A stretch of DNA of 64,000 bases from Escherichia coli (GTDB lineage Bacteria > Pseudomonadota > Gammaproteobacteria > Enterobacterales > Enterobacteriaceae), in NCBI RefSeq assembly GCF_041248615.1, contig NZ_CP158426.1; one strand, 5' to 3'. Below the pieces are notes generated by a model. It was not told the DNA's origin, did not search any database, and saw nothing but the letters and a program-made list of their open reading frames with translations. Below, piece after piece: positions 46,460 to 61,940 of this stretch; position 1 is the first letter of the stretch, and every line of letters begins with the position of its first letter. The position numbers were made by a program, and so were the translations under genes.

Positions 46460-47437
46460 TCAATCGCTCCCTTTCCGCCCTTCAGCTACAGGGTCGTTGT
46501 CGGCGATAACAAAACCTAAGTCCTGAGAGAATCTCTCTCGTGGGAATCCTTTAGCAGGTAAACCCATTGAATCATATCCACATCCGGGAACATTTGGTTT
46601 AGAGTCAATAAGGTCTGCAATTTGCCGAAGCCATGTTGATCCCGGACCAAGTCGTTTAACTAAGTACCAGATAATACAGATCGCGCTAAAAATCCTCTCG
46701 CAACTCTCTGGATGGAGATTAAGTCCGTCAAAGTATTCATTATCCGGTACTGGAACTCGGGGATGCTTTCTATTCCATATTCTGGAATGGTGAGCGCAAC
46801 GATTCCTTATGAGATTAAGGCACTTCAACCATTTTGCAAATGTCTGCTTATTATCAATGCCAAAACGACGTATAATTTTCCCCTGCATATGACCATTAAG
46901 CATCGCATAATATTTAGACATCTGACCAAAATCCCAGGTCTCCACCGCCACCCAAAATGGAATCTCCTTGCCTTGGCTTCGATGCCATTCAATACAGTCA
47001 TCTCTGCTTTCGTCTAATTTTACTTTTTGCTTATACACCCAATGCTCGAAGGCAGATGAGAATTTTGGATTAATGTATTTTGATGACATGTAGGCAAGTG
47101 GATCATTGCGACCAACCTCATGCGCGATGACTGAACGAACATGAATCTCTATTCTTTCGATAGCATCAATCATCAAAAGACGCAGTTTTTTGTCAAAAAG
47201 ATATAGATCGTACGTCTTCTCGAAACTGGTACCAGCAAGAAATCGGTCTGTTCTGTACGAAAGACCTTTATCTGTTGTCGCAATAATTCTTGATGGGTAC
47301 CAAAAACCTGACAATCGATAATATCCAACCTGCGACAGCTTACGTATCGCACGATTTCGATCATTGATAATCATGCCACGTTCAAGTAGCAATCCTAGCA
47401 ATTCGTGATAGTCCTTATGAGGCTTTGCGGCAATCAT
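46460..47437 (-). CDS. Abi_2-family (AbiD/AbiF-like) abortive-infection protein
   Basis: Start at internal ATG (MIAAKPHKDYHELLGLLLERGMIINDRNRAIRKLSQVGYYRLSGFWYP…); conserved blocks YYRLSGFW and LIRNRCAHHSRIWNRK are the hallmark of the Abi_2 (PF07751) family as I recall it. Confidence 0.65.
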   Translation of the reverse strand: MIAAKPHKDYHELLGLLLERGMIINDRNRAIRKLSQVGYYRLSGFWYPSRIIATTDKGLSYRTDRFLAGTSFEKTYDLYLFDKKLRLLMIDAIERIEIHVRSVIAHEVGRNDPLAYMSSKYINPKFSSAFEHWVYKQKVKLDESRDDCIEWHRSQGKEIPFWVAVETWDFGQMSKYYAMLNGHMQGKIIRRFGIDNKQTFAKWLKCLNLIRNRCAHHSRIWNRKHPRVPVPDNEYFDGLNLHPESCERIFSAICIIWYLVKRLGPGSTWLRQIADLIDSKPNVPGCGYDSMGLPAKGFPRERFSQDLGFVIADNDPVAEGRKGSD

Positions 47438-47809
47438 AGTGGCGAAACAAAAGATAATAAAAGGCCCGACCGTGAAACTCACATGCCTGAAATCGGCGGC
47501 GGAGAAACAGAGGATCGGGCTCGGTTGCCTGTAACTCTATCCGAAGTTATCCACATGTCAATGCACAGTTACTTAGGAAACTAACATAGATACTATCATC
47601 ACTCACGAAAAACCACTATATGTGGTTTTTATTCATATTGTTATCCACTACAGGCTGTGTCAATAACTTTTACCTATTAATTGGGTAATTTCTACATTTT
47701 CCTATGCTGGCTAGTTTCTCTACTGAAAAGTTGGCACTCCTTAATCGCTTTTCGGTTAATACTATCGGTCTTCATATTGCCAGCAGCATACGCCATCCGA
47801 TAATTTCTA

Positions 47810-48770: not shown

Positions 48771-50876
48771 TTATTGAGCTTCCTTTTGCGATGCTTGTGC
48801 TGCTGTGGTCAGTGATTGTGTGACCGTACTGATCGCTCTGTCATATGCTGTGCTACCTTTTGGCGTATTTGCCAGACGTAACAAGGCATTTCGTATAACA
48901 GGGCTTTCGTATGCCTTCGCTGCTCCGCCTACGGCACCAGCAGCAGGAACAACAAACGCAGCCGTTTTTAGCATCCCCGCTAATACTGCTGCGTTTATGA
49001 TGCCACCACCAACTAACAATCCATAAAGCTGCTGACCATTTAAGTTTTGAACGTTCGCTTTTGCCGCGTGTCTTGTATCGTTGAGGTATTTAATAACGCC
49101 GTCCAGTTCCTTTCCATGTACGCCTTTAAAGAAAGTTGCTGATTGCTTCCTGTTCCGGTGTAACGCATTAATAAACTTCTCAACACTGATATTTCCAGAC
49201 GGATCAGTCGCCTTATCTACAGCATTCTGAACTATAGCTGCTCGTGCGTTTTGCCTACCATTGTCATCCAGAAGCCTGTAAAGCTGAGAACGTTCTGATG
49301 GGCTTTGGCTAAAAACGAGTTTTGTTACATCCTCAGGCGTGGCCTTGCCGCTGGCTATTGCCTTTTGAACGCGCGTTCTTCCCATCATGTCATTGAATTT
49401 AGACCATGAGCGATCAACCCTTGCCATATTAATGGCTTCGTCTGCTCCAAGATTTTTGGCTACGGCTTTTTTCATATCCGCCGTATATGCCTTGTAGATA
49501 ATATCGCTGGCTTTCTGGAGCGTATCTTTATCAACAGTGTCAGATGACGCCATAAATCGCTTTCGAAGATCGGTTCTGTTTTCCCTCGCCAGACGCAGGT
49601 CATTTGGTCCGCTGGTGATATCGTCTTTAAATTGCTGCAAGACTTTTACCGCGGCTCTATCCTGAGATTTGCCCGGGCGGCTTAACACGGCAATCTGATT
49701 GTCGATAGCTTTTACCGTGTTTGAGAGATCGACAGGGGTATCCCCCATAGCGTCAATTATGCGGTTATATCGCTTTCCTGCTGCCTCAATGAATTTTTGT
49801 TGCCCTTTAGTCGCAGATTCATAAAGCTGTTTATCAGAAATGCCACCCAGACCATCGCTAAATGTTCTGACTAAATTTTCTCGTGCTTGTTGTTGATTCA
49901 GCCGATTCTTACCGGTTCCAAAAAAAGGAACTCTTTCGCCTAATGTCTGAGCCTGACTCTGCATAAAGGTTTTATCTTTCAACATGTCACTGGTCATTAA
50001 CGGCAGATTTCTTTCCGATGCAAAGTCGACAGCAGCCTTTGCTTCAGGCGACATATCACCACGAACAGCCCTCGAAACCGCACTCGCTGTATTTTCCAGC
50101 CCCTTACCAATACCACCAATGCCAGCAGAAATTACCGTTTGTAACGGATCAATATCTTCTCCACCAGCAAGGCTGGTGGCTCCCTGTAGTGCTAAATCTG
50201 TAGCTGCTGATTTCCCTATGGCCCCCAGCACCGTTCCGGCCCTGCCCGCTGGTGTAAACGCCAGCGCATTAGCCAGAAACGATGCCACGTCTTGCGGCGA
50301 TAAACCCGGCTTGTTCAGAGCATAATCACCGGATGGCAGGGAAACGATAGTGTTACCCTTCTCATCCTGCCTTAATTTCGCTCCCATGCTCTGAAGAATC
50401 TTTTCCTGAGATGCGTCAGAGCCGAAAAGTTGAGACCATCGAGCTTTTAGAGCATCCATGCTGAGTGAGGTTAACTCTGGGGCAAGGTCGACATTTTGCA
50501 GTCTCTCCATCTCTGGAGTCATTCGGCTTTCGCCTGTTATAGCATCGCGCATCGCAGCCCCAAGACTGGCTCCCTGTTCTGCTGAACGCTCAAGCCCCTC
50601 TCTTTGCTGAGTAGCTAACTTTGCATACCCTGACGCAAGAGAATTATCAGATGATGTATGTTGAATATTTTGAGTTGCTGATTGGTATCGGTCTATTTCA
50701 TTCGTTGATGGTAGTGGATAGGCAGCATAAAAAGCCTGCTTAGCCTGCTCTACACTTTCTCCGGCTTGCGGGGCAACGACTTCATTAAAGTATTGCTCCT
50801 GAGCCTGCGCTTTTTGTTCTGGTGCTAACGCCTGATACTGTGGAGAGGCGATAACATCTTTCCATGCTTTAGCCAT
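48771..50876 (-). CDS. large alpha-helical protein, possibly a P22 gp16-like ejection/internal virion protein
   Basis: 701 aa, A/Q/K-rich; its ATG overlaps the upstream stop (TAATG). Identified by size and order only, not by recalled sequence identity. Confidence 0.4.
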   Translation of the reverse strand: MAKAWKDVIASPQYQALAPEQKAQAQEQYFNEVVAPQAGESVEQAKQAFYAAYPLPSTNEIDRYQSATQNIQHTSSDNSLASGYAKLATQQREGLERSAEQGASLGAAMRDAITGESRMTPEMERLQNVDLAPELTSLSMDALKARWSQLFGSDASQEKILQSMGAKLRQDEKGNTIVSLPSGDYALNKPGLSPQDVASFLANALAFTPAGRAGTVLGAIGKSAATDLALQGATSLAGGEDIDPLQTVISAGIGGIGKGLENTASAVSRAVRGDMSPEAKAAVDFASERNLPLMTSDMLKDKTFMQSQAQTLGERVPFFGTGKNRLNQQQARENLVRTFSDGLGGISDKQLYESATKGQQKFIEAAGKRYNRIIDAMGDTPVDLSNTVKAIDNQIAVLSRPGKSQDRAAVKVLQQFKDDITSGPNDLRLARENRTDLRKRFMASSDTVDKDTLQKASDIIYKAYTADMKKAVAKNLGADEAINMARVDRSWSKFNDMMGRTRVQKAIASGKATPEDVTKLVFSQSPSERSQLYRLLDDNGRQNARAAIVQNAVDKATDPSGNISVEKFINALHRNRKQSATFFKGVHGKELDGVIKYLNDTRHAAKANVQNLNGQQLYGLLVGGGIINAAVLAGMLKTAAFVVPAAGAVGGAAKAYESPVIRNALLRLANTPKGSTAYDRAISTVTQSLTTAAQASQKEAQ

Positions 50877-52297
50877 TAATCACCCCATAGTGAAGAAAAG
50901 TTACTGCTGGCTGCTGGCTGTGATACCTGCTCAGATTGCGGCAATGTCTGCGACGAAGAAGCAGTTCCTCTGTCAACTGCTGAAATAACCCGCAAAGCAT
51001 CATAAGTTCGACCAGAAGCAGCTTTCAGCGAATTGAACTGGTTTTCCATCTTCCGGCGCTTGGTATCAATGGTTTTTGTGGAGTCGCCAGGCTGAGGGAA
51101 ATACATTTGATAATATTTTGACATTTCAGCAGGTGCGATAGCTGCCCCTGTTTCCTGACGGAGTATTGCCATTATTGCGTCATTAGCATTAACAACGTAT
51201 TGCTGCTCTGCTGGGCTGAGCGTTAAGTTAGCCAGCGTCCCATTACCCAAAGCATTATTAATGATCGCCACTCGCTGTGGGCTAAGCTGGTCTTTCAGTG
51301 TATCTATTGAATCAAGAGCATCCCTAACCCTGTATGCAAATCCAGCAGCTTTTTTAGCCCCATCTGGCGACTTTTCCATGATCTTTTGGGCTGTTGGCAA
51401 AGCTATTGGACGAAACCCATCTCCAGATATTGGCTGGTTTAGTTTTCCCTGCTCTTCACTTCCGTCTGTGTAGTATTTTGTGACAGTGCCATCATCGTTT
51501 TCTCTAACACTCATTAATTTTTTGGCGTTTGTATTAATTCCAGCCGCTGCCGCAAATGCCGCCGCCCCCTCTGGATCCGCCTTTAACATTTGAGCGTACT
51601 GATTGTAATTCTGCATTGCTGCTGTTGGTGCATATGCTGACGTTAACGCATTTGCTCGGTTAATATCCTGCCCTCTCGCCTGAAGTGCTTCGCTGGCCTG
51701 ATTGCTGCGGATTGTCTCTGCCAACTTGCCACGTTCAATATCCCGACCTTCCATTTGATCTTTGATATCGAAATACTTCTCATGACCGAGAGAAAACAGT
51801 GCCATACTACCAGCAAGCCGCTGGAATCCCTGTGGATCATTAACATGCATTTCGGCAACAGACTCAGGAGAAATTCCCAGGCGACGCATTTCATCTTCGT
51901 TATCTGCTATGAATTTTCCAAATGCCCCAGTTCCGAGCGAAGATGCGATTTGAGCACTAGTCGCAAGATGACCAATAGAATTTCTCTGGTCGTCATCAAT
52001 AAAGCCCATCCCTTTCTGAACGCTTTCAAATTCTTCTGGATACTCAGAAATAAGACTGCGCATTTTGTTTCTGTCTCCAGACTCAAAAGCCCCGGCATAT
52101 GCTTTCTGAAACTCTGCTTTACGCTGTTGTTGACGTGCCTGCTGATTAATCTCAGCAACGCCTCTTAGCCCCTGTAGCGCCATTAAACCTACGTTTGGCT
52201 GCTGCTGATACTGCACAGGCTGAGGAACGGAAGAACGAGGAGCATTATCATTTTGCGGTGCCATGCTAGGCAGCCCGCCAAGTTGCCATGTCGCCAT
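50876..52297 (-). CDS. possible P22 gp20-like ejection protein
   Basis: 473 aa (P22 gp20 is about 471 aa as I recall); TAATG coupling at both ends; Q/A-rich N-terminus. Confidence 0.4.
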   Translation of the reverse strand: MATWQLGGLPSMAPQNDNAPRSSVPQPVQYQQQPNVGLMALQGLRGVAEINQQARQQQRKAEFQKAYAGAFESGDRNKMRSLISEYPEEFESVQKGMGFIDDDQRNSIGHLATSAQIASSLGTGAFGKFIADNEDEMRRLGISPESVAEMHVNDPQGFQRLAGSMALFSLGHEKYFDIKDQMEGRDIERGKLAETIRSNQASEALQARGQDINRANALTSAYAPTAAMQNYNQYAQMLKADPEGAAAFAAAAGINTNAKKLMSVRENDDGTVTKYYTDGSEEQGKLNQPISGDGFRPIALPTAQKIMEKSPDGAKKAAGFAYRVRDALDSIDTLKDQLSPQRVAIINNALGNGTLANLTLSPAEQQYVVNANDAIMAILRQETGAAIAPAEMSKYYQMYFPQPGDSTKTIDTKRRKMENQFNSLKAASGRTYDALRVISAVDRGTASSSQTLPQSEQVSQPAASSNFSSLWGD

Positions 52298-52974
52298 TAG
52301 AATCCAAGCCCCCCAACAAGACCAATAAGCCCACCACCAATAGCGCCGGCCGCAGTTCCTATTCCAGGAACAACGGAACCAAGTTGCGCACCCGCTAAAG
52401 CGCCTGATGCTGCCCCACCAATACCACGCGCAAGACTGGATGGCTGCTGCGCCTGACCTGCACGAATAGCGCCAAGCCCCTGCAAGAGTTGTCCGGTATT
52501 ATTGGCGTAGTTTTGCCCTGCCGTTGCCTGCCCTGATGCCGCATTCATCCCGACATTTAGCAGGTTTCCATAATTTTGCATTTGCCCACTAAGCCAATTG
52601 TTATAAAGCATGGGCGCAATGGAAGATAACTGGTTACTGGTAGCTGTTGAGCCAAGCCCCCCGGTAGCTTCTGCTGAGACAAGGTTCTGATAACGGGCCT
52701 GATCTGCCTGTGTTTTATATAAACCAGAACCAAAGAAATCATTCGCGGCTTTATTCTGCCCTTCCAGAGTCATCAGTCCTTGTAGTTGTTGTAAAGCAGG
52801 CAATCCGACTTCTGCATACGGCTTGAGATTATTCATCACCGTATTCCACTGCTCGCGCTGCAAATCAATTGCCTGCTGCTGGGCCTTCGCCTGAGCTTTA
52901 GAGGCACCACCATCACCGCCTTTTTCGTATACGGCACGATTGAGATGTTTATGAGCTATATGGGTAATTAACAT
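52297..52974 (-). CDS. possible P22 gp7-like ejection protein with Gly-zipper C-terminus
   Basis: 225 aa (P22 gp7 about 229 aa); C-terminal Gly-rich hydrophobic segment GIGGAASGALAGAQLGSVVPGIGTAAGAIGGGLIGLVGGLGF suggests membrane insertion. Confidence 0.4.
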   Translation of the reverse strand: MLITHIAHKHLNRAVYEKGGDGGASKAQAKAQQQAIDLQREQWNTVMNNLKPYAEVGLPALQQLQGLMTLEGQNKAANDFFGSGLYKTQADQARYQNLVSAEATGGLGSTATSNQLSSIAPMLYNNWLSGQMQNYGNLLNVGMNAASGQATAGQNYANNTGQLLQGLGAIRAGQAQQPSSLARGIGGAASGALAGAQLGSVVPGIGTAAGAIGGGLIGLVGGLGF

Positions 52975-53429
52975 TCGCTGAATTCCTTATATTGTTGCCG
53001 AGTTAACTGATAAAGCGTTACGCCGACGGGTTTACCACATCTGATATAAGCATCATCAAGGTGACCAACACGGGTAGCGCCAAGCAAACGGATAATTGCC
53101 CGTCCGTATTTCGTGGTGTCAGGAACCATAGTGATGCTGTTAAGGAATGGTGAGTTTTCGAGAAGCCATTTGCAGAATAATCGATGCCCTTGCAGTGCAT
53201 ATTCACCACGGAATCCGGGGTCGTACACCGCATGGCATTCAACAATGCTATGCCAGAAGTTACGCACTTCATGAACGCCAGCCAGCACCAATCCTTCGTA
53301 GATGCCGAGATATACCGCATCAGGCTTGATGTAGTACGTGTGCCCCGGCTCAACAATATTTTCGGTATTGCCAGGATCGTTAAGAAAGGCCTGTAATCGC
53401 ACAGGGTTATCAATAAATTTTAGTTCCAT
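52968..53429 (-). CDS. hypothetical protein, first large gene of the operon (gp14-like by position)
   Basis: 153 aa, ATG start, 7-bp overlap with the next gene. Confidence 0.35.
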   Translation of the reverse strand: MELKFIDNPVRLQAFLNDPGNTENIVEPGHTYYIKPDAVYLGIYEGLVLAGVHEVRNFWHSIVECHAVYDPGFRGEYALQGHRLFCKWLLENSPFLNSITMVPDTTKYGRAIIRLLGATRVGHLDDAYIRCGKPVGVTLYQLTRQQYKEFSEC

Positions 53430-53445
53430 GCGATGCCATCCATTT

Positions 53446-53607
53446 TCACATACAGCCTGCCAGCGCCTTATCTATTAACCCTCGAGCAATTTCATGCAGA
53501 GTTGGCGCTACTCCAATTCCTGATTTTTTACGCTGCTCTTCCTGAATTTTCTTTATCGCTTCCATTTGCTTCTCACTTATCAATACCGGCTTTACTGAAA
53601 TAGCCAT
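53446..53607 (-). CDS. small ORF (53 aa) heading the operon
   Basis: Below the 60-aa track cut-off; ATG at 53607 preceded by AGGGGG; MAISVKPVLISEKQMEAIKKIQEEQRKKSGIGVAPTLHEIARGLIDKALAGCM; 16 bp upstream of the next gene. Confidence 0.35.
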   Translation of the reverse strand: MAISVKPVLISEKQMEAIKKIQEEQRKKSGIGVAPTLHEIARGLIDKALAGCM

Positions 53608-53620
53608 AACGCCCCCTTAG

Positions 53621-53640
53621 AACTGTATAAAACAACAGTT
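53621..53640 (-). promoter_or_regulatory. LexA-box-like palindrome upstream of the operon
   Basis: AACTGTATAAAACAACAGTT = CTGT-N8-ACAG with perfect AACTGT/ACAGTT arms, 14 bp upstream of the small ORF start. Confidence 0.45.
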
Positions 53641-53747
53641 ATTATAGTTTCACAAATCGCAATATTCATCATCGTAATTGCAAAATATGAAACAGATAGC
53701 ACAAAAAAATGCCACCGCTCAGTAGCTGGTGGCATCGTTCTGTGTGT

Positions 53748-53775
53748 CAGGTTTTGACAGGTTTTTTATGGACTC
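53748..53775 (+). terminator. hairpin plus T-run (plus-strand terminator-like) followed by conserved ATGGACTC motif
   Basis: CTGTCAGGTTTTGACAG then GTTTTTTATGGACTCTAAAAACT; a near-identical tail follows the hairpin at 59577-59606. Confidence 0.4.
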
Positions 53776-54053
53776 TAAAAACTATATTTATGGTGTCGCA
53801 TTACCCTTCACGGCAGGCGCTTTTCAGTTCTGCCCTTGCTTCTGGCTCCATTGGTAATTTGATTCGCGATCAGCTATGCGGATGGTTTGCTGAACAGGCA
53901 TAACAACTTCTCAGTGGCTGTTTTCTGAACTACGAAAATTTCGTAGTGCTCACTTTCAAAAACGTCACGCCCTTGTACACAGGATTTTACGAAAGTCTCG
54001 TAAAACACTCTCTGATGCCAGCCAGGTGTTGTGCGCATCAATTCAGTCACATT

Positions 54054-54169
54054 GTGTTGGTTCAAAATACCGTGTTGTTGGTTCAGTGTTGGTTCAATAA
54101 AAAGAATAAAATCCTTATAAAACAATACTCTTTACAAATTGAACCAACTGAACCAACTGAACCAACACC
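54054..54169. repeat. iteron cluster B, the inverted counterpart of cluster A
   Basis: GTTGGTTCA x3 then TGAACCAAC x3; 54130-54169 (CTTTACAAATTGAACCAACTGAACCAACTGAACCAACACC) is the exact reverse complement of 45764-45803; lies 22 bp past the primase-helicase stop. Confidence 0.8.
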
Positions 54170-54191
54170 TTTTCTACGCACATGAAGAAGC

Positions 54192-56948
54192 TCATTCTTC
54201 AGATGAGTTATAATCTCCTGGCTGGTAATTGAGTACATAAACGTTTATTTGTCGTCCCTGAATACGTGGTGATTTTCTTTGGTATCCACGACCGCTGTTT
54301 GGTGGGGTTAGCATCCCGGCTTTTTTCAACACTTCAGCAAACTGTTTTGCGTTGAAACCACATGCGATCTCCTTTTCAAATGTGGCCGGGAATGTGTAGA
54401 AAATCATTGGGCTTTCGTCATGTTCTCCACGCTGACGGTATCCGGCTAAATCTTTGATGGGCAAATCTGCCGGGCTGTATGGAAATGGTGCAAAACGGCT
54501 AAGCCCATAGGCATTAAGAAATGCCTCCGTTTGTTCAATAATCTGCTGATGCTCTTTGTTACCTGTGCCGAACTCGCGCAACCATGCGTTATAGCTGTGC
54601 TGTATCGCATCACGGCATGTCTGAGCATCCCAGCCTGTTACAACCTCGCCTAACAACAATGCGGCCTCCAGAATGGCAAATCGCGCGGCTACACGGTGAA
54701 CCTGCTCACCATAATCGGATGGGATCAGGCTTCTCCATCTGCTTTCGCAGTCACGAACGGTTTTAATAGCCTGTTGCTGGTGGTCTGCCAGCCATTTAAT
54801 CCACTCACGCCCGGACGCGCCGTGGTGATGCTGGTAAGCGTCTTTCAGTGCGTCTGCGTGCTGTTTTCCGTTCTGGTAATCGTGAAAGCGTACTGCTTTA
54901 CTCAACGGAATATTCAGCAGTCGCACCAGTTGCCCGGCTTTGGTTTTTCGCCCGGAAGTAGCGATAAATGTTTCTAAATCCATTTCTCCGGTGCTGATTG
55001 CCACTGTACGCCAGCGTTTTAGATCCCGGTTTCCACCATCTTTAGCGCCTTGCAGTTTCCCTACACCGTTAAATAACGCATAGGCAGACTGTGAAACGCT
55101 GACAGGATCAGCGCCCTGACCAACTTCATCAAGCGGCATTAGTCCGTCATTGTGGGCGGCGGCCTCATTTGCCAGCCCCAGCGCGGTTCCGTACCACGTC
55201 AGCCGCAGTAAATCAGGGTTGCCGTATAAGCTGCTCGCCACGTTTGCCGTGGTGGTCTTACCTGCGCTCGACTGCTCATAGAAATGAATGCCGAACCCGT
55301 CAGCGCCCACCAGCCCAATCAATGGCGCTGCCAGTGCTGCGCCGATCCCGGTCATCATTGAATAGTTACCAAAGGCCAGACGCGCCACGTTATCACGCCA
55401 GCTTTTCGCGCTCCCTGAGACGGTATATCCGGCTGCGGCTGAGCTTCTCCCGCTGAACAGCACAGGATTTTCAGGTGTTCCGATGATTTCCCCATCAGGC
55501 ATGATGTACGCTCCGCATTGCCAGCCAGTGGCATGAGCAACACGCCACAATTCACGAGAGCCACTGCGTTGTAGCCAGTCTGCCAGTATTGCTCTGAGGC
55601 TGCTTTTGGTCGTGACATTTACCCCACCAGCTTTAAGTGTGCGCCATCCTTCACGTTCACCAATATCAGCCAGTGGAATGGCAGCGGTTGTCGGCGTTTC
55701 AGAACCAAACGACAGCCAGCGAAGAATGAGATACTGGTCTTTATCGTCTCTGCCAGTACCGATAACGCTTAACGGAGAACATAACCAGCTTTCGTTATTG
55801 ATGATTTCTCCACTCTGGCTGTCAGCTCTCGGAGATACCCAATAAATACCATCCTCGCGGCTTTCTATTCTTGGTTTCAGTGGATCGGTATCCATAACCT
55901 TAAAATCGCTTCCCTCAATGGTCTGTGGCTCCTGTTTCACGCCATTACCCTGTGGTTGGTACATTGACTTATTGAACGCTTCTGTGGCGCATTTAATGCC
56001 GTGTTTTTGGTGGTAATCATTCCAGTCTGCTTTGTGATCTGTCGGGGGTAATGCCACCCATCCAGAAACAGATAAAGCTGCTTTTTCTGCTGCTATTCTC
56101 CCCGTGTTTTGTCTTCCTTCGCTGTGGTCGTTATCCGCAGCAATGATGATTTGTGCTGAAGGAAATTTATCCCGCAGTACCTGGGCGACATATAACAGGT
56201 TCCCGGCATCAATCGCCGCCACTGTCAGCGCCTCTGGACGAATTAAATGGGCAGATAATGCCGTTGCCAGCCCTTCTGCGATTAAGATGCTCTGTGTTGT
56301 TTCTGGTGCGTTTATGGCGTGATATGCCCCCCGCTTTGCTGAACCTGTCAGGAGTCTTTTTTCACCATGTGAGGTAATAGTCTGTGCTGCTGTGACTGCG
56401 CCGGATTTATCCACCAGCGCCAGCAACAGAGATCCATCGGGCAACACGGGGAATGTAAAATCACCTACCCCTTTCGCAACCAGATAATCAGATTTGCCGT
56501 TTACAGCCTTTCTGCGCATGTCATCAAACTGACGGGAAAACGTATCCCGTCTTTGTTGTTCGTCCTTCTCTGCCCTTTTCAGGCGCTCCTGTTCGCGTCG
56601 CTGGCGCTCGGTTTCCAGTTGTTCCCGTTTCTGGCTGGTGGCTTCTGGTGTTTCCGTTGTCCGGTAATCAATACCCAGAACATCAGCGGCAAGAAGCGCC
56701 GCCTCTGTTGTGTCGCAGTTATTTACGCGTTTAATTAAATCCAGCCCATCACCAGCGCCGCACTGATTACAGATGAAGCTACCGCGCCCGTTGTCATCGA
56801 ACCGGAATCGATCTTTGCCCCCACATGCAGGGCAGGGAGCATGACGGCGCGGAGAGTCAGGGACATTTATGTTCAGGCAGCCCAGCACATGAGGCCAGTT
56901 GTTTTCAGACGCACTGATAACCTGACGGATAAGATCAATGTTTCGCAT
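54192..56948 (-). CDS. primase/helicase of the integrative element (zinc-ribbon + TOPRIM + P-loop NTPase)
   Basis: About 918 aa from ATG at 56948; CPACGGKDRF…CNQCG zinc ribbon, TOPRIM-like IIIAADNDHSEGRQ, Walker A YEQSSAGKTT; iterons directly downstream. Confidence 0.8.
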   Translation of the reverse strand: MRNIDLIRQVISASENNWPHVLGCLNINVPDSPRRHAPCPACGGKDRFRFDDNGRGSFICNQCGAGDGLDLIKRVNNCDTTEAALLAADVLGIDYRTTETPEATSQKREQLETERQRREQERLKRAEKDEQQRRDTFSRQFDDMRRKAVNGKSDYLVAKGVGDFTFPVLPDGSLLLALVDKSGAVTAAQTITSHGEKRLLTGSAKRGAYHAINAPETTQSILIAEGLATALSAHLIRPEALTVAAIDAGNLLYVAQVLRDKFPSAQIIIAADNDHSEGRQNTGRIAAEKAALSVSGWVALPPTDHKADWNDYHQKHGIKCATEAFNKSMYQPQGNGVKQEPQTIEGSDFKVMDTDPLKPRIESREDGIYWVSPRADSQSGEIINNESWLCSPLSVIGTGRDDKDQYLILRWLSFGSETPTTAAIPLADIGEREGWRTLKAGGVNVTTKSSLRAILADWLQRSGSRELWRVAHATGWQCGAYIMPDGEIIGTPENPVLFSGRSSAAAGYTVSGSAKSWRDNVARLAFGNYSMMTGIGAALAAPLIGLVGADGFGIHFYEQSSAGKTTTANVASSLYGNPDLLRLTWYGTALGLANEAAAHNDGLMPLDEVGQGADPVSVSQSAYALFNGVGKLQGAKDGGNRDLKRWRTVAISTGEMDLETFIATSGRKTKAGQLVRLLNIPLSKAVRFHDYQNGKQHADALKDAYQHHHGASGREWIKWLADHQQQAIKTVRDCESRWRSLIPSDYGEQVHRVAARFAILEAALLLGEVVTGWDAQTCRDAIQHSYNAWLREFGTGNKEHQQIIEQTEAFLNAYGLSRFAPFPYSPADLPIKDLAGYRQRGEHDESPMIFYTFPATFEKEIACGFNAKQFAEVLKKAGMLTPPNSGRGYQRKSPRIQGRQINVYVLNYQPGDYNSSEE

Positions 56949-57306
56949 CACCGTACCCCACGTGGTCTATAGCGTTTGCGATATGGCTAACCAGCATCTG
57001 CCACTTGGTTATTCCGTAATCAGTCAGCATGCCATCATTGTTTAGCCACATATCAAATTCAGCGGTTGTCGCAAGTTTCCACTTATCGCCGTGGACAGTC
57101 CTCATTGCTGGGTACATGAATGCGCAAATCAGATCACAAACATCTGACGGCTTCAGAGATGTAGTAATGGTGCGTCCCTCTGGCGTCTGAATTGCCATTT
57201 TCTCTTCACCAGTAGAATGAAGGTTATGAATCCACACAGCACCAGCAATCTTTGCCACCTGCTCTCCGATTGCGGAGCTAAGCGCCATTTCTGCATTTTC
57301 ACGCAT
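56935..57306 (-). CDS. hypothetical small protein
   Basis: 123-aa ORF overlapping the primase start and the upstream ORF end. Confidence 0.4.
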   Translation of the reverse strand: MRENAEMALSSAIGEQVAKIAGAVWIHNLHSTGEEKMAIQTPEGRTITTSLKPSDVCDLICAFMYPAMRTVHGDKWKLATTAEFDMWLNNDGMLTDYGITKWQMLVSHIANAIDHVGYGDAKH

Positions 57307-58727: not shown

Positions 58728-58918
58728 TTTTCACCCCCAAGAATTACCAGCTCTGCACGGGCATCGTTAACCAAAGATGAGCACGCTTTAATCGCATCCA
58801 CGACATCAGTAGCGTCCATTTCTTCAGCCGAAAGACTGACAGCAACCAGGACAGCCGCTGCTTGCTCGATTAATTGAAGTGCGGACGTAAGGCGAGGGGT
58901 ATTAATTGAGTTATTCAT
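58724..58918 (-). CDS. hypothetical small protein
   Basis: 64 aa; 4-bp overlaps. Confidence 0.35.
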   Translation of the reverse strand: MNNSINTPRLTSALQLIEQAAAVLVAVSLSAEEMDATDVVDAIKACSSLVNDARAELVILGGEK

Positions 58919-59126
58919 TGGTTGCCCCCGTTTTTACTGGCATTTCGCCACCTTCCAGCAGGAAATGAACGTCACGAACGGCGAGATCCAATATCGCGAG
59001 TAACGCCTTCAGTTTTTCGTCTCGTGAGGGAGAGTTGCTCACCAGAATGTCATTAATCACTTCTGTCAGTGTGATGATCTGGCTTGTGCGTTCGAGGGGG
59101 TCCATATGCACATCGTAGGTTTTAAT
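58911..59126 (-). CDS. hypothetical small protein (C-terminal part of the tracked 342-aa ORF)
   Basis: Internal ATG gives MIKTYDVHMDPLERTSQIITLTEVINDILVS…, a plausible 71-aa protein; the upstream part of the long frame looks like out-of-frame translation of a structured GC-rich region. Confidence 0.35.
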   Translation of the reverse strand: MKTYDVHMDPLERTSQIITLTEVINDILVSNSPSRDEKLKALLAILDLAVRDVHFLLEGGEMPVKTGATNE

Positions 59127-59329
59127 CATGTGCCACCTCCATGCGGATACGACCAGCAAAAAAGCAGACGTGATCGCGCACCAGAGAACGGCGAGCATCG
59201 CGTTCAGACTCGGCAGCAATATGATGAATTTTGGCGGTAATTGTCGGGCAATCGCGGCGAACTGCGGCGATAATCCAGATAAATTGCGGTTTTTGGGTAG
59301 GGGTAGTAGCCAGCATGTGGCAGCCTCCT

Positions 59330-59610
59330 TGATTGATGGTTTATAGCCACCGCCGGAGGTCCTAAGCTCGCTGGCGGTGGACTGTACAGGGTTAGGACTA
59401 CTGGCAATCAAGGAAACCAGCCTGACCGAAGTCAGCCCCATACAGCCCACCATTGATAAGGTGTGCGTGTGCGCCGATACAAAAAAAGACGCTGGCGCGT
59501 CATGTATCGCCTCGATTGCCTGCGGGGTCCTAATCCCGGCACCCGTTTTATGAGGTGCCTTATAACCATAAACCGTGTTGCCGCATAACGGCAAGCTCTT
59601 TTTTATGGAC
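59330..59610 (+). ncRNA. candidate structured RNA / immunity-type region (C4- or P4 CI-like antisense RNA?), ending in a plus-strand terminator
   Basis: GC-rich segment with hairpins (CCACCGCC…GGCGGTGG), two copies of GGTCCTAA, long-range complement CCTTGATTG/CAATCAAGG, and a hairpin plus T-run at 59577-59606; sits inside an otherwise minus-strand gene chain. Confidence 0.3.
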
Positions 59611-59932
59611 TCCGAAAACTCACTATTGGAAGAACCAGATGCACAATACATCGCGCTCATTTCGTTAACGTCACGCGCATGGACGAAGGTTTTTGTGGAG
59701 TCACTACGCGAGAAGAGAAAGCCATCTACGACCAGAAATTCTCTGGCGCAGCCGCTGACCTTCTCAACGCTAACACCATCGACCGTAATTTCTGACATGG
59801 TTAAGGCATCCGCTCCTACCACCAGCAAATGACAAACTTTGCTTGTATCTGCTGTATTAATGCCTGACTTTGCTGTCATATTGCTGGATTTTGGCGACAT
59901 ACCAGCCAGTGAAAATATCTTCTTCTGGACGG

Positions 59933-60115
59933 TTAGCATTTGTTAACCTCCGCGAACTCCTTCATGAAGCGCGCCAGCGGTTGTACGCATGGCGATTGAT
60001 ACCCGTCGCGATAAAACGTCACTCGGTTGTGAGACACGCTTTCGACAGTAACGAGTGCTCCGTGGGCATCTTTGTAGCGTTTTTGTGGTTGTGGTATTCC
60101 TGTTGGCTTAGACAT
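59933..60115 (-). CDS. small phage protein (DUF4222-like, tentative)
   Basis: 60 aa from the internal ATG: MSKPTGIPQPQKRYKDAHGALVTVESVSHNRVTFYRDGYQSPCVQPLARFMKEFAEVNKC. Confidence 0.4.
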   Translation of the reverse strand: MSKPTGIPQPQKRYKDAHGALVTVESVSHNRVTFYRDGYQSPCVQPLARFMKEFAEVNKC

Positions 60116-61639: not shown

Positions 61640-61940
61640 TTAAAGTTTAGTGGTTGCCCATACAGTATTTCTATTAAGACTAGAATCTATTGAAAGAAAT
61701 TATAAATCTATTGAAAAAATACCGATCCACTGAAAGATTGCAAATGCAGGTGGGATAATTATTTTCTTTATTTTCAATTAGTTACCAGTTTAAAAAATCA
61801 TTGTTTTATCAAAGAGTTATATCTTTCATCGTCATTCATCATGTTTTTACATTTCTTTTTATCTTTTATTATTCAATTGGTTGAGTCGGTTTATAATGGC
61901 TCATGATGGCTTAAAATGGCTAATGATAGCTGGCGTATCT
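61640..61940. promoter_or_regulatory. AT-rich control region with short direct repeats upstream of the AlpA-like gene
   Basis: Repeats of TCTATTGAAA (x2, plus CCACTGAAAG) near 61680-61740 and AATGGCT (x3) near 61895-61935. Confidence 0.35.

Follow-up and report, generated by a model that had tools for sequence, protein, structure and literature searches.

We analyzed a 64,000-nucleotide stretch of the Escherichia coli contig NZ_CP158426.1 (the window), and within it a palindrome at 53621-53640 that precedes an operon for phage DNA-ejection proteins. The chromosome of E. coli NRZ14408 (NZ_LT599825.1) matches the window at 100%. The operon is part of an element of approximately 19 kb that lies between yicC and dinD and has the build of a phage satellite, not of a prophage. 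We think it probable that this is an "ejectosome" operon repressed by LexA and carried by a satellite-like integrative island, and that the palindrome is a genuine LexA operator gating its promoter. LexA binding and damage-inducible transcription are predictions from the DNA sequence.

The letters at 53621-53640 read AACTGTATAAAACAACAGTT on the plus strand, and the operon is on the minus strand. The box, the promoter elements around it and the nearby box of dinD are as follows.

53621..53640, minus strand: predicted LexA (SOS) box, coding strand AACTGTTGTTTTATACAGTT (53640-53621), predicted to cover the transcription start
53641..53646, minus strand: perfect -10 hexamer TATAAT, directly adjoining the box
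53664..53669, minus strand: weak -35-like hexamer ATGAAT, with 3 of 6 consensus matches, 17 nucleotides from the -10
53647..53693, minus strand: imperfect 47-bp dyad, GTTTCA..TTGCAAT-N13-ATTGCGA..TGAAAC, over the -35 region, with 17-nucleotide arms that are 76% complementary
53700..53744, minus strand: hairpin with a T-run that resembles an intrinsic terminator, between the primase/origin region and the operon promoter
44776..44795, minus strand: dinD SOS box, AACTGTATATAAACACAGTT on the dinD strand, 32 nucleotides before the dinD ATG, serving as an internal positive control

The box AACTGTTGTTTTATACAGTT is a 20-bp palindrome with a CTGT-N8-ACAG dyad and is close to TACTG(TA)5CAGTA, the SOS box consensus of Enterobacterales (PMC6590174). 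This architecture had been recognized in an earlier examination of the letters (the sequence-only reading), which also placed the box 14 bp upstream of a 53-codon open reading frame (ORF) with a strong ribosome-binding site. Both observations held, with a small correction to the spacing: there are 13 nucleotides, CTAAGGGGGCGTT, between the box and the ATG (53607) of this ORF, here called orf53, and they include a G-rich Shine-Dalgarno sequence containing GGGGG. Along the minus strand, the primase stop codon (54192) is followed by six iterons, the hairpin, the dyad, TATAAT, the box, the Shine-Dalgarno sequence and the orf53 ATG. The -10 hexamer next to the box went beyond the sequence-only reading, as did the recognition of a satellite-like island with integrase, alpA and primase genes in place of a prophage.

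The position-weight-matrix check that had been proposed for the site placed it among genuine LexA boxes. The matrix consisted of symmetrized counts from 28 E. coli SOS boxes, and sites were scored by the Berg-von Hippel heterology index (HI). The 28 reference boxes follow the compilations of Lewis 1994 and Fernandez de Henestrosa 2000 and are an uncurated set. With this set, the candidate had an HI-like score of 6.1 compared to 2.3 to 15.6 for the reference boxes, which is mid-range for verified boxes. Known boxes that were left out of the matrix and then scored gave similar values (recA, 5.8; sulA, 5.6; yebG, 6.4; lexA, 7.6). The dinD box, which the sequence-only reading had used for comparison, was the best site in the window (HI 3.7); the candidate ranked second of approximately 64,000 positions, and the third site had an HI of 9.1. 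The matrix consensus, TACTGTATATATATACAGTA, agrees with the published one (PMC6590174). In E. coli K-12, the distribution of HI has a functional low-HI peak at 7.3 and a background peak at 22.3 (PMC12527982), and the SOS genes of Salmonella have values of 1.5 to 18 (PMC8072944). An HI of 6.1 agrees with the binding class in both of these published ranges.

There were two bare CTGT-N8-ACAG motifs in the window (dinD and the candidate) compared to 0.71 expected, and the bare pattern alone is therefore weak evidence. An HI of 6.2 or less was found at 2 of 40 million positions in first-order Markov sequence modelled on the window, corresponding to approximately 0.003 sites per 64 kb.

Two other LexA-like sites were noticed in the island. 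One, CCCTGTATGCAAATCCAGCA at 51328-51347, is inside the gp20-like gene of the operon and is the site with an HI of 9.1 (approximately 0.1 expected by chance per 64 kb). It is also found in related gp20 alleles of loci L004, L005 and L023, and this could be conservation of coding sequence only. The other, TACTGTATGGGCAACCACTA at 61648-61667 with the box on the minus strand, has a perfect LexA left half-site and a poor right half (HI 12.9). It is located 45 nucleotides upstream of the alpA-like gene (61603-61385), beside two TTTCAATAGATT repeats and a TATAAT.

We found the promoter together with orf53 in 498-500 of 5,426 complete E. coli genomes (~9%), including strains 042, H10407, NC101 and MP1; the promoter with its box was present in 498. 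Islands of the same build were detected through orf53 homologues in Serratia (loci L007 and L008), Citrobacter-like contigs (L013-L015), Klebsiella michiganensis (L009-L012), Raoultella (L019) and E. coli LR-33 (L002). A box-agnostic promoter pattern was also used to scan metagenomes, where 55 of 100 hits were true family members, and one genome per species, where only 2 of 15 loci were relevant. A scan of viral contigs gave 11 matches, most of them prophages called in isolate genomes; it brought neither further box variants nor signs of encapsidation.

The promoters fell into two classes. Class A has the full box, and class B (the Klebsiella, Raoultella and LR-33 type) has a box that is one base too short. 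The -10 hexamer was TATAAT in nearly all promoters of the family, and TAAAAT or TACAAT in some class B copies. Class A haplotypes include AACTGTTGTTTTATACAGTT and GACTGT... in E. coli, TACTGTGTCTATATACAGTT in Serratia, and AGCTGTATCGTTATACAGTG, GTCTGT... and GGCTGT... in the Citrobacter-like contigs. The -10, CTGT and TATACAGT were invariant over these haplotypes, and variation was found at two flanking and five spacer positions. Synonymous divergence between the same class A islands (E. coli, Serratia, Citrobacter-like) was saturated, with a synonymous divergence (dS) greater than 1.2. Invariant half-sites amid saturated synonymous sites are the footprint that would be expected of a LexA site. 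Among the sampled E. coli variants, insertions and deletions occurred in the G-run of the Shine-Dalgarno sequence and not in the box.

The class B sequence, (A/G)(A/G)CTGTATAAATAT-CAGG, has a perfect left half-site, but the right half is displaced by one base and fused with the Shine-Dalgarno sequence. These boxes had an HI of 14-25, and a LexA dimer should not bind them. Control by LexA would thus be confined to one branch of the family. The two classes also differed in what lies downstream. Where a locus had enough downstream sequence to be counted, the full box was associated with P22-type cargo in 34 of 34 loci and the short variant in 0 of 19.

The 47-bp dyad is conserved in class A and class B promoters, with or without a LexA box, and the TGA within the -35-like ATGAAT is invariant in an alignment (A2). 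The dyad is a candidate site for a second regulator from the island or a helper phage, and the promoter probably receives a second input from one of them through it.

Several additional LexA-like sites, and one disrupted box, were found in related islands. In UPEC129 (L035:3027-3040), the ISL3-family element ISEc53 is inserted inside the LexA box (GACTGTTGTTTTAT, then the element), parting the promoter from orf53; a ClbS/DfsB-family gene is adjacent to the insertion. In many related islands of both promoter classes, a LexA-like box (e.g., AACTGGATGTATAGACAGTA; HI 5-10) starts precisely at the stop codon of the integrase gene and lies upstream of the alpA early region (L007:2686-2705, L008:2845-2864, L023:1143-1162, L013:8-27, L009:149-168 and L004:1113-1132). 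Such a box may put the early genes of those islands under SOS control. The island in the window does not have one; its integrase is different and there is one extra gene. The LR-33 island, in which the cargo promoter has no box, contains two strong LexA-like boxes in tandem (L002:5903-5944), TACTGTGTTTTTATACAGTC (HI 6.1) and TACTGTTCATAATCACAGCT (HI 9.3), that precede a 346-aa hypothetical gene located after the SSB gene.

The five genes downstream of the box are as follows.

53446..53607, minus strand: orf53, small conserved protein, 53 aa, leading the cargo operon in all relatives
52968..53429, minus strand: P22 gp14-like protein (DUF2824, "head morphogenesis"), 153 aa; phrog_651 1e-66, DUF2824 8e-62
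52297..52974, minus strand: P22 gp7-like ejection protein, 225 aa; phrog_598 3e-70, P22_gp7 8.5e-73
50876..52297, minus strand: P22 gp20-like ejection protein (Inj_translocase), 473 aa; phrog_917 2e-110, PF16928 2e-57
48771..50876, minus strand: ejection or DNA-transfer protein in the gp16 position, 701 aa; phrog_770 "DNA transfer protein" 8e-162

By homology and by order, the four large genes are the cassette of P22 genes 14-7-20-16. The sequence-only reading had described five tightly coupled genes. The sizes of the four large products were as it gave them, and their junctions are indeed overlaps (ATGTTAA, a 7-bp overlap, then TAATG and TAATG); the junction between orf53 and the 153-aa gene is instead a gap of 16 nucleotides. 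It aptly noted that structural genes of phages are not usually under SOS control, given that the products are homologues of P22 gp14, gp7, gp20 and gp16 and that the counterparts in phage Kapi1 have no LexA-like site. The 153-aa protein is 84% identical to Kapi1 gp14. The best match of the gp20-like protein in a sequenced phage (APSE) was only 52% identical. The 701-aa protein is 67% identical over 91% of its length to the gp16-position protein of phage N7 and, along its full length, 32% identical to the Sf6 DNA transfer protein in the gp16 position. There was no Pfam match for the 701-aa protein, no NCBIfam match for the four large proteins, and no match to a PADLOC defence model for any of the five products. 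A convergent 155-aa ORF with a signal peptide follows the gp16-like gene; it is not homologous to the signal-peptide gene found after gene 16 in Kapi1, and we set aside the idea that the two are counterparts.

The genes of the operon are intact and under purifying selection between islands, with ratios of nonsynonymous to synonymous divergence (dN/dS) of 0.03-0.30. Disrupted copies, with insertion sequence (IS) elements or internal stop codons, were found in UTME-9, H10407 and UPEC129. The gp20 and gp16 alleles have been exchanged as modules behind a constant promoter. Comparing the window with the MP1 island (48771-52297 and L006:12464-16500), gp14 and gp7 are 99% identical, gp20 is 45% identical and gp16 is 22% identical. 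In many islands, the gp20 and gp16 pair is the only cargo of these families. Work from the Casjens and Teschke laboratories indicates that P22 virions assemble with foreign sets of ejection proteins, that gp16 and gp20 need to share one source, with mismatched pairs giving dead virions even if the foreign protein is incorporated, and that escape from SieA exclusion is set by the type of ejection protein (PMC10461980). The many islands with a minimal gp20 and gp16 cargo fit this requirement for a matched pair.

The class B islands carry different cargo behind the same promoter and orf53. In L002, L009, L011, L019 and metagenome loci, we found virion-internal or injection proteins that belong to other types of podovirus (phrog_1044, 3003/342, 684 and 7694), with the best phage matches to Ab31 and HTVC-type phages. 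Alternatively, the cargo is a baseplate-hub-like or transglycosylase protein with TerS-like genes. From the gene content, the slot behind orf53 is, on our reading, a modular bay whose cargo serves DNA delivery and packaging across genera.

The remainder of the island has the organization of a satellite. Its gene order is a tyrosine integrase, a hypothetical gene, an alpA-type helix-turn-helix gene, antA, the C4/isrK region, several small ORFs, the primase with the iteron origin, the ejection operon, the convergent signal-peptide ORF, AbiD and PerC. The alpA-type gene belongs to phrog_66 (excisionase/regulator), and relatives have the Phage_AlpA Pfam domain. In the RefSeq annotation and in PHROG, PADLOC and Rfam searches, there were no capsid, portal, terminase, tail or lysis genes in the island. 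The replication features are as follows.

54192..56951, minus strand: TOPRIM/DUF927 primase-helicase, 919 aa; phrog_1139
54054..54168, no strand assigned: iterons, six copies of GTTGGTTCA, three per orientation, around an AT-rich spacer, just after the primase stop codon

The iteron region is the probable replication origin of the island. The GTTGGTTCA repeats are also present in a Serratia island (L007:9610-9700), and a DUF5906 replicase replaces the primase in some relatives. Relatives are integrated at other sites as well, for example at tRNA-Thr beside proA in MP1; there was no tRNA gene at the ends of the island in the window.

Two other regions of the island had recognizable functions. 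Rfam matches to C4 antisense RNA (RF01695, 80 bits) and isrK (RF01394, 63 bits) were found at 59370-59558 on the minus strand, within an ORF (58911-59939) that is annotated in RefSeq as an "ash family protein" and is just downstream of antA. This suggests that the region is an RNA immunity module of the P1/P7/P4 type and that the long "ash" ORF is spurious at least in part. At its end next to dinD, the island has an AbiD-family abortive-infection gene (46460-47482, minus strand; PADLOC 8e-58) and a gene for a PerC-family activator (45443-45730, minus strand). This end is variable in relatives, with RnlAB, Panacea-domain, Fic, YafO or SLFN/AlbA genes.

Taken together, these features lead us to the following model for the operon. 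In an undamaged cell, a LexA dimer on the +1 region would block initiation. DNA damage would activate RecA and cause self-cleavage of LexA, and the operon would then be transcribed. Derepression would be simultaneous with that of a resident P22-like helper prophage, which is lambdoid and SOS-inducible. We infer that the island ejection proteins are incorporated into virions; they would be loaded, aided by the island's own gp14, into procapsids built by the helper. What would follow is speculation. Particles containing island DNA and a non-helper ejection set could enter cells protected by SieA-type exclusion, a possibility guided by the P22 work (PMC10461980), or mismatched gp16 and gp20 could poison the helper virions (interference), or both could happen. 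Encapsidation of the island itself is conjecture.

Several observations weigh against this model. The boxes behind the matrix were an uncurated set. In the wider promoter family, about half of the members have the one-base-short CTGTATAAATAT-CAGG of class B, and the association between box and cargo, perfect as it is, is confounded by shared ancestry, the loci not being phylogenetically independent. The box adjoins a conserved, perfect -10, but the -35 is weak and the transcription start is only predicted. A consensus scan of 53300-54300 gave no sigma-70 promoter; the scanner made no call because the -35 is weak, and this is not evidence against the perfect, conserved -10. Neither TerS nor the P22 pac site (searched with an uncurated sequence) was found in the island in the window, and the search for attachment (att) sites gave just one unconvincing 12-bp repeat. 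The link to a helper is limited to a single example, strain MP1, which is the recorded host of the P22-like phage Kapi1 and has the island on its chromosome.

The alternative that best withstands the evidence accepts LexA control and differs about the purpose of the operon, which would be an anti-phage or interference device and not part of a transmissible satellite, its mismatched ejection proteins flooding P22-like virions under assembly upon SOS induction, so that the particles from the induced prophage are non-infectious. Mismatched gp16 and gp20 do give non-functional virions (PMC10461980), and the gp20 and gp16 of the MP1 island are just 29% and 24% identical to those of Kapi1. The presence of AbiD on the island and the negative searches for a packaging signal and TerS in the window island also fit this alternative. 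On the other side, the operon has no match among PADLOC defence models, and the full chassis of integrase, alpA, primase and iteron origin is typical of satellites (PMC6092414). The TerS-like genes beside the injection cargo of class B point to packaging and not to defence alone. Moreover, interference and transfer can coexist in known satellites. We regard a role in interference alone as unlikely.

A second alternative is that the box is the operator of an island or phage repressor, for example through autoregulation by orf53, and that its likeness to a LexA site is coincidental. Mobile elements often have small autoregulators whose palindromic operators lie at +1. The gene directly downstream of the box could encode such a protein: the AlphaFold model of orf53 has an extended N-terminus followed by two helices, and from this predicted topology alone the protein is ribbon-helix-helix-like. 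A related sequence that is incompatible with LexA, CTGTATAAATAT-CAGG, is found at the same place in the wider family, as this alternative would allow. Nevertheless, an operator for another protein would reach an HI of 6.1 just once per approximately 20 Mb, and LexA would be expected to occupy a site this good in the cell regardless of other binders. No similarity of orf53 to DNA-binding families was detectable, and there was no match in Pfam, NCBIfam, PHROG, PDB sequences or Foldseek PDB. The protein is strongly constrained (dN/dS 0.03), and its N-terminal segment, VKPVL, is invariant in both promoter classes. The box is not conserved in both classes and the 47-bp dyad is, as is orf53, so that the dyad is a better candidate than the box for the operator of a regulator encoded by the element, be it the orf53 product or another protein. 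For these reasons, we consider it quite improbable that the box serves only a repressor other than LexA. A related idea, that orf53 is a LexA co-factor like gp7 of GIL01, was set aside; orf53 is equally conserved in class B, where there is no functional-looking box.

It is scarcely credible that the operon is a decaying fragment of a P22-like prophage beside an unrelated island, with a LexA-like site that has no regulatory role: this would account for structural genes without capsid, portal, terminase or tail genes and for the copies in UTME-9, H10407 and UPEC129 that have IS elements or internal stops, but not for intact, translationally coupled genes with dN/dS of 0.03-0.30, for the promoter-orf53-cargo layout that recurs in islands of Serratia, Citrobacter-like, Klebsiella and Raoultella type as well as in 498 E. 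coli genomes, for modular swaps of gp20 and gp16 alleles behind a constant promoter, or for conservation of the box where neutral sites are saturated.

A LexA-repressed ejectosome operon therefore remains our preferred interpretation. If LexA gates the operon, then approximately 1 in 11 E. coli genomes, including enterotoxigenic E. coli H10407, enteroaggregative E. coli 042, NC101 and MP1, would have damage-inducible injection proteins that do not belong to a prophage, and SOS-inducing antibiotics are predicted to turn the module on. The strategies of satellites would extend from hijacking of the capsid, tail and packaging to the DNA-delivery step. The operon would also offer a testable system for how ejection proteins are selected into P22-like procapsids and for the relationship between ejection-protein type and sensitivity to superinfection exclusion.

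A broader proposal is more tentative, and we offer it as a possibility that is somewhat less likely than not to hold in full. The islands may be a previously undescribed class of podovirus satellites that bring their own ejectosome, do not remodel capsids, and swap modules according to the type of helper; in the branch that parasitizes SOS-inducible P22-like prophages, the module would be directly under LexA and thus made just when the helper is induced, and it would let satellite particles get past SieA-type superinfection exclusion in helper lysogens, poison helper virions, or both. The module types could then be P22-type gp20/gp16 with or without gp14/gp7, internal virion proteins of the Ab31/HTVC type, and a hub or transglycosylase protein with TerS-like genes. 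We found no description of such islands in the literature on ejection or injection proteins with satellites, phage-inducible chromosomal islands (PICIs), DUF927, or P22-like phages (Lederbergvirus), a search whose coverage excluded most papers in subscription journals.

The box itself has the properties of canonical SOS boxes (dinD, recA, yebG, umuDC): a 20-bp palindrome with CTGT-N8-ACAG, an AT-rich spacer, and a score in the verified range. It may also overlap the core promoter or +1 region, as they do. Canonical boxes control genes for repair, mutagenesis and cell division, whereas the candidate box is in a horizontally acquired island and precedes phage ejection genes.

The cargo has its closest relatives in P22-like phages (Lederbergvirus genes 14, 7, 20 and 16), which have the same four families in the same order and the same mosaic pattern, with gp14 and gp7 conserved and gp20 and gp16 highly variable. 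In those phages the genes are inside a long late operon with no LexA site (the best HI in Kapi1 was 16.7). In contrast, the operon on the island stands alone: it has a promoter of its own and a small leader gene, and other virion genes are absent.

The chassis resembles that of Gram-negative PICIs of the EcCICFT073 type, with a terminal integrase gene, then an alpA-type regulator, and pri-rep with an adjacent origin (PMC6092414). Accessory or defence genes at the far end are shared with both Gram-negative PICIs and P4-like satellites. Gram-negative PICIs are described as having no virion structural genes, and their alpA responds to the helper phage, independently of SOS (PMC6092414); the island differs from them in having four P22 virion-assembly and ejection genes. 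As in P4-like satellites, there is a primase-helicase together with an RNA of the CI/C4 clan, as in P4/P1 immunity. Unlike P4, the island has no ORF with a PHROG match to sid, psu or delta, the P4 genes that act on P2 capsids; cos was not searched for.

The sequence-only reading had expected SOS-controlled operons to be more typical of induction, toxin or defence functions. SOS control of the operon would be unusual, as it said, and the best precedent is not a toxin or defence gene but operon I of the SaPIs (pathogenicity islands found in Staphylococcus aureus), a LexA-regulated packaging and morphogenesis operon (Ubeda et al. 2007, as reported in PMC3152322). As far as that report describes it, SaPI operon I is likewise a helper-exploiting operon under host LexA, timed with SOS induction of the helper and without helper activators. 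It differs in encoding TerS and capsid-size remodelling proteins where the island operon encodes ejection proteins, and in its Gram-positive host with another LexA motif; the island described here is satellite-like as judged from sequence. If our interpretation is correct, the island would add to SaPI operon I another, independent example of a satellite with helper-exploiting genes wired to SOS. As an SOS box, the site adds one more ordinary member to a known class; what differs from the known systems is a stand-alone, putatively SOS-gated ejection operon with interchangeable cargo.

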